In this document: one piece after another, positions 1 through 3,365 of the stretch
Numbering within the stretch: the first letter of the stretch is position 1
How the letters are laid out: every line of letters starts with the position of its first letter
Assembly (NCBI GenBank): GCA_001775055.1
Contig: MFBU01000002.1
Location: 1-56,486 of the forward strand
Length of the DNA stretch: 56,486 bases
Direction: 5' to 3'
Source: Candidatus Curtissbacteria bacterium RIFCSPLOWO2_02_41_11
GTDB taxonomy: Bacteria; Patescibacteriota; Microgenomatia; Curtissbacterales; GWA2-41-24
Position numbers and translations under genes: made by a program
Notes under the pieces: generated by a model
Databases searched by the model: none
The model's input: only the letters and a program-made list of their open reading frames with translations
Told to the model about the DNA's origin: nothing

Positions 1-18
1 ATAACAAGCGAAAGGCAC

Positions 19-61
19 TTTGTCAGCTTTTTGTCAGGCAAAAGTCGGCACAAAGTCAAGC
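19..61. promoter_or_regulatory. four direct repeats with 11-bp period (TGTCAG, TGTCAG, AGTCGG, AGTCAA), Pho-box-like candidate operator
   Basis: GTC cores start at 22, 33, 44 and 55; OmpR/PhoB family proteins bind 11-bp-periodic TGTCA repeats. Confidence 0.35.
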
Positions 62-92
62 AGAAAAGACCAACTACTTTAATAATAGTCGC

Positions 93-281
93 ATGGCAAG
101 ACGCGAGGGCCAACCGCCACCAATGGCGGGAGAATTGGGTTCCCAACACCAACCAACACTGGTAGAGCTAGGCAATGGAAGATTCAAGCGAGAAAGTCCA
201 GTTGGTGGCAGGTCAATCACCATCATTGATCTTCATGGTGAGCTTAAACCTCCCACTGCAGAAAATCCCGAACTAATCTAA
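93..281 (+). CDS. small hypothetical protein (62 aa)
   Basis: ORF with a -10-like TAATAAT just upstream of ATG; its stop overlaps the yebC stop convergently; no recognisable domain. Confidence 0.45.
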   Translation: MARREGQPPPMAGELGSQHQPTLVELGNGRFKRESPVGGRSITIIDLHGELKPPTAENPELI

Positions 282-1030
282 ACGCTTTTTAACAATTCAT
301 CCGGAATATCAAAATTACTCCAGACTTTGACAACGGCATCAAGCTCTTCTAATTTTTCCATTAGATTTAAAATCTTCTTGGCAGTTTCAGAATCGGCGAT
401 TGCAACAGTACTTGTCGGTTTTTTGGCAAGTTCGGCAGTCTCTACTTTTAGTCCCTTCTCAACAAGTGAGTTTTTAACAGATTCAAGCTCACTCGGTTTG
501 GTATAAACCAAAACGCTATTTTGCGCTTCCTCCAAATCTTCGGCGCCTGCCTCAACTGCCAAATCAAAAATTTCGTCAAAACTTTTGCCGTTTTTTAAAA
601 CCGTAACCACTCCTTCATCTGTAAACATCCAAGAAACCGCACCTGGTGAAGCAAAAGCACCACCTGAATGTTCAATTACTCCTTTAATTTCCGCTGTTGT
701 CCGATTGCGATTGTCAGTCACCGCCTGCACCAACAGCGCGACCTTTGCCGGCCCATATCCTTCATAGTTTACCGATTCGATTTGTGCGTCGGCCGTGCCT
801 TTGCCGAGTCCCCGCTCTATTGCCCTTTTTATATTTTCCTTGGGCATGTTGACCGAGCGGGCCTGCTCTATTGCCAGTCTTAACTTGAAGTTGGAAGCCG
901 GATCGCCACCTGCGCCTTCGCGTACTGCTATCGTTATCGCATTGGCCATTTTGGTAAAAGTTTGGCCGCGCTTGATATCCGCCGCCCCCTTTTGCCTTTT
1001 AATTTGCGACCACTTACTATGACCCGACAT
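278..1030 (-). CDS. yebC: YebC/PmpR (TACO1) family protein
   Basis: N-terminus MSGHSKWSQIKRQKG; motifs YEGYGP and TDNRNRT; 250 aa; SD AAGGAGG upstream. Confidence 0.97.
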   Translation of the reverse strand: MSGHSKWSQIKRQKGAADIKRGQTFTKMANAITIAVREGAGGDPASNFKLRLAIEQARSVNMPKENIKRAIERGLGKGTADAQIESVNYEGYGPAKVALLVQAVTDNRNRTTAEIKGVIEHSGGAFASPGAVSWMFTDEGVVTVLKNGKSFDEIFDLAVEAGAEDLEEAQNSVLVYTKPSELESVKNSLVEKGLKVETAELAKKPTSTVAIADSETAKKILNLMEKLEELDAVVKVWSNFDIPDELLKSV

Positions 1031-1136
1031 AAGAAATCCTCCTTGTGGTCGTAAATATCAGAGGAGCGCCGTTGGCACGACGGAGTGTGCCAAGGCGACC
1101 TGCTGATATTTGACTCCACTTCGAATGTCCCGACAT
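1017..1136 (-). CDS. putative 39-aa leader peptide starting with the same 10 residues as YebC (MSGHSKWSQI)
   Basis: ATG at 1136, 9 nt downstream of TGTTATAAT; its stop falls inside the first yebC codons in another frame. Confidence 0.55.
   Translation of the reverse strand: MSGHSKWSQISAGRLGTLRRANGAPLIFTTTRRISYVGS
1053..1111 (-). promoter_or_regulatory. long hairpin in the yebC leader
   Basis: AAATATCAG(1053-1061)/CTGATATTT(1103-1111), CGCC/GGCG, TTGGCAC(1072-1078)/GTGCCAA(1087-1093). Confidence 0.75.
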
Positions 1137-1285
1137 CTTGATCGGATTATAACATTCTGTTGAATAAAAATGGCAATAATTTTTTAAATATTTCTCTTTG
1201 AACACCATGAGTACTCAAATTGTCCAAAATTGTCGCAGAATTTTCACTTATTGACTGTTTTCACTGTTTATCTTAAGTTGATTTC

Positions 1286-1987
1286 ATGCCAAATATAATA
1301 GCGGATTGGCAAAATATCGCCAGTAAGGATGGTTTGAGTCAGTTGGCTATCAAAACAGCGCTTTGTGGCCAGTGGGATGATGCTGTCAAAATCAACAAAA
1401 AAATCCTCAAAATTGATACCACCGATATCAATGCTCTGAACCGGCTGGGCCATGCATATACTAGCCTTGGCCAAAAGACTAAAGCCAAAAAAATTTATAA
1501 GCAAATCCTTGGGATTGATCCTTATAATATAATTGCCCGAAAAAATATGGAGAAAGTTGCCAGGCAAAACGGCCAACCAAACGGCGGCAATGGTAATAGT
1601 CAAAAAGAAACAAATAATCCGTCCGCGGTCTTTCTTTACGAACCGGGCAAGACCAAAATTATTAACCTCTTAAATCTGGCACCGCCGGCAGTTTTATGCT
1701 CCCTAAATTGTGGCGACAAGATTTTATTTAACCCCAAAAAACACGCAATTTCTATTACTACTTCTGATGAAGTCTACTTAGGTGCCCTACCTGATGATTT
1801 AGCCCATAAGCTCTTAACTTTCATTGCCGGCGGCAACAAATACGAAGCATACATTAAATCTGTCGGTTCAAAAATACTAACAATATTTATTAGGGAAATC
1901 TTCCGCTCTGAAAAATTTTTAAATCAGCCCTCATTTAAGGACAAGCGCAACCCCTATTTGCAGGAGAAAGAACACGCCTGGGCTTAA
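1286..1987 (+). CDS. TPR-repeat protein
   Basis: TPR-like segments (ALNRLGHAYTSLGQ...ILGIDPYN) followed by a beta-rich C-terminal domain. Confidence 0.85.
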   Translation: MPNIIADWQNIASKDGLSQLAIKTALCGQWDDAVKINKKILKIDTTDINALNRLGHAYTSLGQKTKAKKIYKQILGIDPYNIIARKNMEKVARQNGQPNGGNGNSQKETNNPSAVFLYEPGKTKIINLLNLAPPAVLCSLNCGDKILFNPKKHAISITTSDEVYLGALPDDLAHKLLTFIAGGNKYEAYIKSVGSKILTIFIREIFRSEKFLNQPSFKDKRNPYLQEKEHAWA

Positions 1988-2003
1988 AAAGCATCAAGCT
2001 TTT

Positions 2004-2375
2004 TCAAACCTCATCTCTGCGAGTCATATCTTTAAGAGAGATTTCGCCCCTTAAATTTTGGGGTGGTGTAGTGTCATCTTGACTTGAAGAAGGCAAATTC
2101 TGACCAGTATCAACTGAGTCCCGCTGCTCCCAGAAAAAAGGTTCGTTTGCCGCGGTTTTTAAATGTTCTTTTTCCTCGCCTGAAGTCTGATTTGAATCGG
2201 CTTTTGGCTGTTTTGAAATTTTTAAACCTGCAGATGAAAACTGACTGTTCATTAACTGTGGCGTATCAGCACTCTGAGGTTGGGGGACATTCCCCTTTTG
2301 CTCACGCGCCAGAGATATAAAAGCGATGATAAACGAAACAACCAATATTAATATACCTAAGGCAAAAAAAATCAC
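2004..2375 (-). CDS. hypothetical membrane-anchored protein
   Basis: N-terminal hydrophobic helix, polar low-complexity tail; abuts the upstream gene. Confidence 0.75.
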   Translation of the reverse strand: MIFFALGILILVVSFIIAFISLAREQKGNVPQPQSADTPQLMNSQFSSAGLKISKQPKADSNQTSGEEKEHLKTAANEPFFWEQRDSVDTGQNLPSSSQDDTTPPQNLRGEISLKDMTRRDEV

Positions 2376-3365
2376 TTAAAAATATTTGGAGGCAAAATCG
2401 TTTCCGATAACTAAGCTAACCTCCTCGTCACTACTGGACGAGCTTTTTATATCACATTTAAAAATATTTGCCAAATAACGCACAGTGTATTTATTTTTGG
2501 CAGAAGTTTGAATAAAAGTTTGGTCAACAAGATTTGGGGCTGTCTCAATCTTAACTATATTAACACCCACGCTGGCTGCAAAATCGGCGGCCAGTTGCCC
2601 GACTCCGGCAATGCCGGAAGCATTGATAACTTTTATTTTTAAATTTTCTTTTGTAACATTTTCATTTTCCAAATATTGGGATATGACTTTGTGTAAAACA
2701 AGATTATCTACTCCCAGTACTTTTTGATCATTTTTATAAACAACATCCTCCTGATATTGCGAAAGATCAATCAATTCTAACTGATTTACACGAACATTTT
2801 TCAGCTGCCACCACAACCTTAATTGATCAATGCGGGTAATATTTGTGTCCTTAATATCATCCCCGATTCTCCCTGTTAAAGTCATAAAAGGTGCCGCCAG
2901 TGACGAATAATTTTTAAACCATTTGGTAACCTCTTCTTTATTAATTTTCTGATCATTTTTAAAGATAACATAATTTTCAATATCGGCCCGAAAAGCAAGA
3001 CTTAGTAAACGAGTAAGACCCCCTCCATAACTTTTATTTATAAGTGAAGAAATTGTTGCGATCGGTTCATTGGGATTACCAGTTGCCAAATAGGTCTTTT
3101 CGTCAATTGTTAGAAAAACCAATCTTTTTGGATCTCCCTGAAGAATCAAAACAGCAAGTGGTGTTGTCGAGAGTACAGCCACAAAAGATGAATTGCTATT
3201 CCAGTTAGAGGTACCTAAATATTTGTTAATGGAGAAAGTTTTAACTAGACCGTTAAAACTTGCCAAAACCAAAATCAAAACAATTAAGAATGCCGACAAA
3301 TTCTTCCATTTTGCCTGAACCTGACGCCTTCTCCATGCTGATCTTCGGGCAGGATAGTCTGTCAT
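2376..3365 (-). CDS. LytR C-terminal domain-containing membrane protein (divergent LCP-like)
   Basis: N-terminal TM; C-terminal IKVINASGIAGVG...VSLVIGNDF matches the LytR_C pattern. Confidence 0.75.
   Translation of the reverse strand: MTDYPARRSAWRRRQVQAKWKNLSAFLIVLILVLASFNGLVKTFSINKYLGTSNWNSNSSFVAVLSTTPLAVLILQGDPKRLVFLTIDEKTYLATGNPNEPIATISSLINKSYGGGLTRLLSLAFRADIENYVIFKNDQKINKEEVTKWFKNYSSLAAPFMTLTGRIGDDIKDTNITRIDQLRLWWQLKNVRVNQLELIDLSQYQEDVVYKNDQKVLGVDNLVLHKVISQYLENENVTKENLKIKVINASGIAGVGQLAADFAASVGVNIVKIETAPNLVDQTFIQTSAKNKYTVRYLANIFKCDIKSSSSSDEEVSLVIGNDFASKYF

Follow-up and report, generated by a model that had tools for sequence, protein, structure and literature searches.

In the published description of prophage e14 of Escherichia coli, its presence in icd leaves a hybrid gene together with an orphan fragment, icdC, the differences between the copies being mainly synonymous or conservative; loss of the prophage recombines both icd copies, and excision amounts to a 15.1-kbp deletion (PMC13626634). 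Repetitive extragenic palindromic (REP) sequences and REPINs are summarized as short imperfect palindromes with two inverted arms and a spacer, multicopy and extragenic (PMC3337134, PMC3116915), and the REP tag, as outlined in a further report, is GTAG or CGTC at one end (PMC3733652). The element IS608 is reported to recognize its target by base pairing in a reprogrammable manner (PMC5934647, PMC3201880). The locus described here lies in a stretch of 56,486 nucleotides (the window; positions 1 to 56,486 of contig MFBU01000002.1, assembly GCA_001775055.1) of Candidatus Curtissbacteria bacterium RIFCSPLOWO2_02_41_11, at the 5' end of yebC, where codons 1 to 10 are present once more upstream of the gene, with a hairpin in between.

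All locus coordinates refer to the minus strand of the window, and the features are collected in Table 1. The gene is a bona fide member of the YebC/TACO1 family; its product matched TACO1_YebC_N (PF20772, 99.4 bits, cut-off 36) and Transcrip_reg (PF01709, 166.1 bits, cut-off 27), and orthologues were present in 36 of 41 related genomes. As the original prediction had pointed out from the letters of the sequence, a second ATG, at position 1136, lies 106 nt upstream of the yebC ATG and opens the same peptide, MSGHSKWSQI; the upstream copy of codons 1 to 10 (U) and the downstream copy attached to the gene (D) differ at 8 of 30 bases, all synonymously (GGA/GGT, TCG/AGT, AGT/TCG, ATA/ATT), and two of these differences are serine swaps between TCG and AGT. 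The remaining anatomy that it had described was likewise found in place: the box TGTTATAAT 9 nt before the U ATG, a Shine-Dalgarno (SD) sequence at yebC, a 59-nt hairpin at 1053 to 1111, a helix of 11 of 12 pairs around the SD sequence and AUG, and an upstream open reading frame (uORF) whose stop, TAG at 1019 to 1017, falls 14 nt inside yebC. The hairpin consists of a palindromic element, E, and flanking AAAT and ATTT, with arms at 1053 to 1070 and 1094 to 1111. The two copies are 76 nt apart in the window and 52 to 122 nt apart in other lineages.

We interpret this leader as an orphaned yebC start that was made when a block of ~106 nt was installed after codon 10, and we assign this reading a probability of roughly 60%. 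The block, or cassette, would comprise a REPIN-like palindrome, a 12-nt segment complementary to yebC codons (the anti segment), the SD sequence, and an ATG followed by ten synonymously different codons; its D copy would now continue into yebC, with U left behind as the orphan. U and D would differ only synonymously because each traces back to a working yebC start, the two belonging to different lineages or alleles, and with both copies derived from functional starts, selection for a mimic peptide would not be needed. The reading draws on the anatomy of the locus, the membership of its hairpin in a repeat family, the recurrence of the layout at other genes, its patchy distribution, helix covariation, and uORF geometry; from these we infer that the block moved by recombination or transposition, that U is the resident copy, and that uORF and gene are translationally coupled. 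The promoter context of U is similar to that of the native yebC starts of relatives, and relatives that lack the cassette mostly carry a TATAAT-type box 6 to 12 nt 5' of the ATG and no SD sequence. A consensus promoter and terminator scan of positions 900 to 1300, which requires a -35 box, returned no sites.

The layout is not an assembly artefact. Because the hairpin is a repeat of the kind at which contigs break, an artefact or a chimera of strains had to be considered; the chance of either is negligible, given that an independent 725-nt contig from another run spans positions 821 to 1400 with no differences, that contigs of other runs also tile the region exactly, that the stretch is present in 20 runs from 13 studies, and that six further genomes and five metagenome contigs have the same layout. 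The original prediction had named a duplication unique to this assembly, or one unsupported by reads, as grounds for its own rejection, and the duplication is neither. Read depth peaked over the hairpin (1060 to 1107) in four metagenome runs; the comparison with contigs of other runs is confined to the covered parts of the region.

The hairpin at yebC is a REPIN-like multicopy palindrome and is not specific to yebC. With the 106-nt block as query, its central 55 nt (query positions 28 to 82) gave ~20 other matches in the bacterium's own 1.08-Mb genome, where the matches to the element grouped into 23 clusters. At 24 own-genome sites, recognized by pattern and inspection, the arms ATATCAGCAGGTCGCC and GGCGCTCCTCTGATAT are conserved and the centres are variable, 39 to 88 nt long, and self-complementary; every one of these sites is intergenic, and at 16 the element has the same orientation as the ORF downstream of it. 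The repeat family is present in 27 of 32 genomes from the taxonomic family and reaches 93% identity there, compared with ~65% in gene bodies. A search of the own genome for an IS630-type DDE transposase (PF13358) found none.

The layout recurs at the ends of other genes of these very small groundwater bacteria. A peptide 5-mer common to both translated flanks was found at 7 of the 24 own-genome sites, as against none of 21 unrelated pattern hits and 94 of 3000 random positions, the random positions having been held to at least three different residues per 5-mer and the element sites not. Four of the seven duplicates are at gene 5' ends, two are at gene 3' ends, and one is unassigned. In relatives, fusA duplicates at the same codon were found at 3 of 26 loci, including one in genome G014 in which U has decayed to MAQAKTNSSYSLDRTRN and uORF geometry is retained. 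Orphan 3' ends of the glyceraldehyde-3-phosphate dehydrogenase (GAPDH) gene were found at 7 of 17 loci (one read by eye). These orphans are untranslated and nevertheless retain the frame, the stop, and conservative residues, a conservation that selection on a leader peptide cannot explain. At four of the six GAPDH 3' ends examined, the sequence after the stop of the attached copy is a perfect reverse complement, 11 to 15 nt long, of that copy's first codons, and this inverted repeat tracks the synonymous spelling of the attached copy; together with the anti helix at yebC, it indicates that the replacement copy is generally bracketed by an inverted repeat. The GAPDH 3'-end hairpin, F, is not dispersed: G004 and G013 gave a single match each and G000, G003, and G027 gave none, and thus not all such cassettes are built on a multicopy element. 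In nucleotide local alignment across the element, the duplicates scored 31 to 64, and the 95th percentile of 400 random positions was 38.5; only GAPDH (1/400), C24 (2/400), and fusA (9/400) stood above random positions, and yebC did not (67/400). The signal of the duplicates therefore lies at the peptide level and not clearly at the nucleotide level.

Table 1. Features of the yebC start locus and duplicated gene ends elsewhere in the same genome
Feature	Position	Strand	Description
yebC (YebC/TACO1 family), coding sequence	278..1030	-	250 aa; from ORF list and Pfam
D (downstream, attached) copy of codons 1-10	1001..1030	-	continues into yebC; last 12 nt pair with anti segment
Shine-Dalgarno sequence AAGGAGG	1038..1044	-	7 nt 5' of yebC ATG; assigned to the inserted block
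Anti segment ATTTACGACCAC	1045..1056	-	11/12 complementary to D codons 7-10 (1002-1013)
Palindromic repeat element E (ATATCAGCAGGTCGCC...GGCGCTCCTCTGATAT), REPIN-like	1055..1109	-	from own-genome matches
U (upstream, orphan) copy of codons 1-10	1107..1136	-	last codon ATA overlaps element start
uORF, 39 codons (MSGHSKWSQISAGRLGTLRRANGAPLIFTTTRRISYVGS) + TAG	1017..1136	-	crosses both hairpins; no Pfam match
Extended -10-like box TGTTATAAT	1146..1154	-	9 nt 5' of U ATG; leaderless-type context; read from sequence
fusA, 5' end			U = MTQKQNRLYPLDRIRNI, D = MPDKNSRLYPLERIRNIG; own genome
Epimerase-like gene, 5' end			MTKVILVTGGAGF / MKTILVTGGAGFIGSH; named by eye from GxGxxG start
ORF, 5' end	C23:18364-19158		MKRIKVIQINIY / MSARVLKFIQINIY
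GAPDH gene, 3' end			recoded partial copy across element; own genome
ORF, 3' end	C24:7943-8737		recoded partial copy across element; own genome

Several further observations concern the repeat family and the duplicated gene ends. The own genome has two ORFs resembling REP-associated tyrosine transposases (RAYTs) of the Y1 HUH type, at C25:25719-26348 (minus strand, 209 aa) and C9:43948-44595 (minus strand, 215 aa); the best match of both was REP_Tyr_transpos, at 59.7 and 44.4 bits, under the NCBIfam cut-off of 80. They are flanked by short repeats and palindromes of their own, unlike the element studied here, and no element site of the 24 lies next to either ORF. Elements frequently stand in tandem with one or two more ATATCAG...CTGATAT hairpins, as at C12:22307, C20:36189, C17:9217, and C5:93127 and at loci L263 and L268 of G011; in such tandems the last CTGATAT is followed by A(T)AAT, which yields a TGnTATAAT-like box directly before a gene or a tRNA gene and suggests that the end of the element also serves as an extended -10 promoter. 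Downstream of the GAPDH gene in G014 (L174, C19:11702-15511), a tandem array holds four to five copies of the GAPDH 3' end, in each of which frame and stop are kept and the last residues differ. At a contig edge of the own genome (C9:2-112, plus strand), a yebC-like 3' end, DKETAQKVLNLMEKLEELEAVVKVWSNFDIADNLLEKI*, is 78% identical to residues 213 to 249 of the window YebC; it may be an orphan 3' fragment like those at GAPDH, or part of another yebC gene that is truncated where the contig ends. A reverse transcriptase ORF of 346 aa (C24:5633-6673, plus strand) lies ~2 kb upstream of a 3'-end duplicate; its best match was a group II intron reverse transcriptase/maturase (149 bits, cut-off 300), and it fell under every NCBIfam cut-off. 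A diversity-generating retroelement was rejected as the source of the duplicates, since the differences between copies are not limited to adenines and the reverse transcriptase is below all of these cut-offs.

The distribution of the yebC cassette is patchy. It was present at 6 of 30 loci of relatives (five by motif and the one in G025 by reading) and at 5 of 80 metagenome loci, of which three are identical to that of G011, one has a short hairpin, and one is a distant relative (L071). A search of 401 genomes of the class for the element end followed after 18 to 32 nt by a yebC start, a pattern that would miss degenerate forms, gave eight hits, seven of them real and all in two families. Within genus g5, the cassette is in G004 and not in G043 or G044; within genus g16, it is in G046 and not in G015 or G047; and the G004 and G046 cassettes are ~85% identical by eye, as judged without an alignment. 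In G004, the upstream DNA and U align with the upstream DNA and native codons 1 to 10 of G043 (25 of 30 bases, as in the gene body), whereas D matches those native codons at 18 of 30, and the identity level of the gene body is reached only after ~20 codons. Between G000 and G011, identity is 84 to 97% from the U ATG to about +100, the upstream DNA is unalignable, and the gene body is ~65% identical; these two genomes form the top pair for codons 1 to 33 (88%) and are not the closest pair in the gene body, and their organisms co-occur in the same metagenome runs. The pattern fits a block that was gained and lost over short evolutionary distances and was partly exchanged between lineages. Orphan decay is seen in U as W7R in G025 and I10K in G012. 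Upstream of U, a stretch at 1195 to 1260 (..AGTCAATAAGTGAAAA..TTTGAGTACTC..GGTGTTCAAA..) is also kept upstream of yebC in the cassette-free genomes G044, G015, and G047, and it is probably a divergent promoter region common to yebC and the neighbouring gene at 1286 to 1987.

Folding of the RNA supported the helices of the original prediction and not the switch that it had built on them. The 171-nt region has a predicted energy of -56 kcal/mol (z = -3.8; none of 200 shuffles was equally stable). Segment 1045 to 1056 is 92% complementary to 1002 to 1013, and the helix of the anti segment with D codons 7 to 10 closes a 31-nt loop holding the SD sequence and AUG. The partner of the anti segment in this helix is the final 12 nt of the block; its pairing with the flank is poorer. 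Over seven lineages, 91.7% of the cells of this helix are paired and 6 of the 12 pairs change on both sides, which none of 500 shuffles matched. The two folds had been described as competing; however, they share only 4 nt (1053 to 1056), and the minimum-energy and centroid structures contain both hairpins at once. An Rfam scan of positions 1 to 3000 (E values up to 10) gave no match in 1000 to 1160 and three weak matches elsewhere. Comparison with relatives, which had been suggested as a check, thus gave a divided answer: the SD/AUG helix covaries, and the duplicate peptide is patchy rather than conserved.

These results bear on the explanation first offered for the locus, in which the nascent mimic of the YebC N terminus and two competing folds let YebC set its own translation. 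It has in its favour the identical peptide, the existence of the uORF and of the SD/AUG helix, and the activity of YebC proteins on stalled ribosomes, which is reported to concern proline-rich stall sites (PMC12856214). The same architecture is nonetheless found at unrelated genes, namely, fusA, the epimerase-like gene, and GAPDH, and at 3' ends; the hairpin is a dispersed repeat; the cassette is confined to seven of the 401 sampled genomes and is present or absent within genera; the eight uORF peptides contain no consecutive prolines or similar stall motif; and the folds coexist and have no Rfam counterpart. A YebC-specific leader or RNA switch is accordingly very unlikely.

The uORF has a regular geometry, which, like the covarying helix and the GAPDH inverted repeats, looks selected. 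Cassettes of 82 to 152 nt, with all three phases represented, leave it open, and in each of the eight lineages its stop lies between 0 and +14 relative to the yebC ATG; as read from the sequences, the corresponding uORF ends are +8, -5, and -10 for fusA and -3 for the epimerase-like gene, and in the C23 case the uORF does not end at the gene start. The claim that the uORF is translated and matters for yebC expression gains indirect support from this geometry, and the orphan U start is probably still used, as the start of a translational-coupling uORF. What would count is the arrival of ribosomes at the real start rather than the U peptide itself. Transcripts from the native -10 box would begin at or near the U AUG; ribosomes would translate the 39-codon uORF through the hairpin and then through the helix of the anti segment with codons 7 to 10 around SD and AUG, terminate 14 nt into yebC, and either reinitiate or clear room for initiation at the SD sequence and AUG. 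Transcription start, uORF translation, and coupling are all deduced from nucleotide sequence, and coupling of this kind would be a generic property of such cassettes and not a YebC sensor.

The two matched peptide-coding stretches, which flank a stable hairpin that starts at the last U codon, also invite the idea of programmed bypassing, in which ribosomes that had initiated at U would leave the message at codon 10 and, after a gap of ~106 nt, resume at the corresponding codon of D. In T4 gene 60-type bypassing, the take-off and landing codons are identical, and a stop directly follows the take-off codon. At yebC these codons differ (ATA and ATT), and the codon after U is TCA and not a stop; D has its own SD sequence and ATG, which a hop would not need; the 3'-end cases allow no hop; and the gap is twice that of gene 60. 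Bypassing, one of two alternatives named in the original prediction, is therefore extremely improbable. The other alternative, the scar of an element that restored the 5' end of its target, comes close to what we consider the best explanation.

A different account of the same insertion deserves more attention. The palindrome might have been inserted in place with a long target duplication, from the SD sequence to codon 10, both copies then being selected because a uORF, through its peptide or its codons, is needed for expression; the leader would be a generic selected one and not a relic. A metagenome contig, L071, whose YebC is 47% identical, has an independent, young duplication of ~55 nt (the SD region and first eight codons), near-identical with 4 differences in 30 compared bases; it surrounds an unrelated insert of ~100 nt at the same place in yebC, and the annotated start reads ATA. 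Such a duplication around a different insert is what the in-place account would produce, and the SD regions of U and D are alike in L012 and L052. Over eight lineages, U and D differ at 77 bases and in 44 codons, and the changes are synonymous in 42 of these codons and not in 2; the U ATG and frame are kept in all eight; the uORF stop is always at the yebC start; and, according to the codon lists, D has AGT at Ser2, which creates an ATGA overlap, only where the phase needs it (2 of 2 cases, against 0 of 6). However, no series of single synonymous changes leads from the TCG to the AGT serine box at an invariant residue while the gene stays functional. In genus g5, moreover, D differs from U at 10 of 30 bases and U from the native start of a congener at only 5 of 30, the congeners being cassette-free; the untranslated GAPDH orphans show the same conservation of frame, stop, and residues as the supposedly selected leader; and the fusA U of G014 has decayed residues with its uORF geometry kept. 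In-place duplication maintained by selection is on balance unlikely, but it retains real weight, which the YebC-specific model and bypassing do not.

Some of the findings weigh directly against the installation of a replacement start. Besides the predominance of synonymous differences, no lineage has lost the U start or frame, and more replacements or stops would be expected in a long-unconstrained orphan. In the type B cassettes (G016, G004, G012, and G025), the D copies diverge among lineages about as much as U, and D is thus not obviously a conserved passenger. Which of the copies, U or D, is the resident one is ambiguous. A 135-nt contig near G000 joins 1129 to 1022, skipping 106 nt and continuing in D-type codons, and it may come from a related strain in which precisely this stretch is missing; the joint would make U the incoming copy or represent an allele deleted through the common ATGTCGGG, and it is weak, consisting of one contig with 22 nt on its short side and 85% likeness. 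No transposase is linked to the element, the RAYT-like ORFs being below the cut-off and beside other palindromes. Another 10 element loci, all in G011, lack a duplicated gene end, and most copies are plain intergenic repeats. Among the sequencing runs listed as having the stretch, none is of RNA, and the runs compared with it are DNA contigs.

If the leader is nevertheless an orphaned start left by an installed block, the block could stem from a long duplication of the target, from a template switch at the palindrome, or from single-strand transposition directed by a guide. A wider proposal is more tentative, and the odds are against it: that Curtissbacteria-like members of the Candidate Phyla Radiation (CPR) host a class of miniature gene-end replacement elements. 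In all of the cases, on one strand, the order would be a target segment, a hairpin, a guide (the anti segment), and a cargo copy of the target segment. The cargo would be the end of a conserved gene, with either its SD sequence, start, and first codons or its last codons and stop; it would have been picked up through the mobilization of an adjacent hairpin in an untranslated region. By pairing with the target segment, the guide would direct the element, perhaps with the help of a Y1 HUH enzyme or by recombination, to the same codons in other genomes, where the resident end would be orphaned and a foreign, synonymous one attached, and selection at the level of the element for a codon match would keep both arms coding-like. 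Literature searches, which did not extend to supplements, found no account of recoded gene-end duplicates around hairpin repeats, no report of REPINs between such duplicates, and no description of a yebC leader.

Should the cassette interpretation be true, small CPR genomes host a population of tiny elements that interrupt essential genes (yebC, fusA, and gap) at their most conserved codons and are tolerated because each supplies the gene end a second time, whether brought along or newly created. Repeats would then have a new route by which to remodel gene starts, from leaderless to SD-led and uORF-coupled, and short stretches of essential genes would have a route by which to be swapped between lineages. 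For annotation, such loci yield spurious leader peptides, and their orphan fragments can be mistaken for regulatory mimicry. The meaning for YebC biology itself is probably small.

Among known systems, the nearest parallel is with integrative elements of the e14/icd type, which carry along a diverged substitute for the end of their target gene. Both have an attached, working hybrid gene and an orphan partial copy with mainly silent differences. Unlike e14, the cassette is ~100 nt long, with 76 nt between the copies and without a kilobase-scale element, integrase, or recombinase; it is found at many genes of one 1-Mb genome, at 5' and 3' ends, and its replacement copy is bracketed by an inverted repeat. 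Element E resembles REPINs in being a multicopy, extragenic, imperfect palindrome conserved far above its surroundings. It differs from them in its ends, ATATCAG and CTGATAT, without the GTAG or CGTC tag, and in having no cognate RAYT flanked by the same repeats.

Other comparisons concern parts of the cassette. In IS608, the guide bases are 4 nt at the foot of a hairpin. The anti segment, also at a hairpin foot, pairs with sequence beside the element end, as in the IS200/IS605 group, a likeness that goes no further than resemblance; the pairing extends over 12 nt and not 4, the hairpin is single, and no transposase gene lies inside. As in uORF-mediated coupling and termination-reinitiation, the uORF terminates at the main gene's start or shortly past it, and the SD sequence and AUG are held in a structure that translating ribosomes would open; unlike such leaders, it opens with a copy of the N terminus of the main gene, is probably made by insertion, has no sensing motif, and is not conserved among orthologues. 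Small, mobile hairpin-forming sequences are tolerated inside essential genes in the Rickettsia palindromic elements, the byps of yeast mitochondria, and the T4 gene 60 hop. The cassette likewise places a small hairpin inside an essential gene, but whereas those elements are translated in frame or hopped over, here the gene begins anew beyond the insert, with a second version of its own start.

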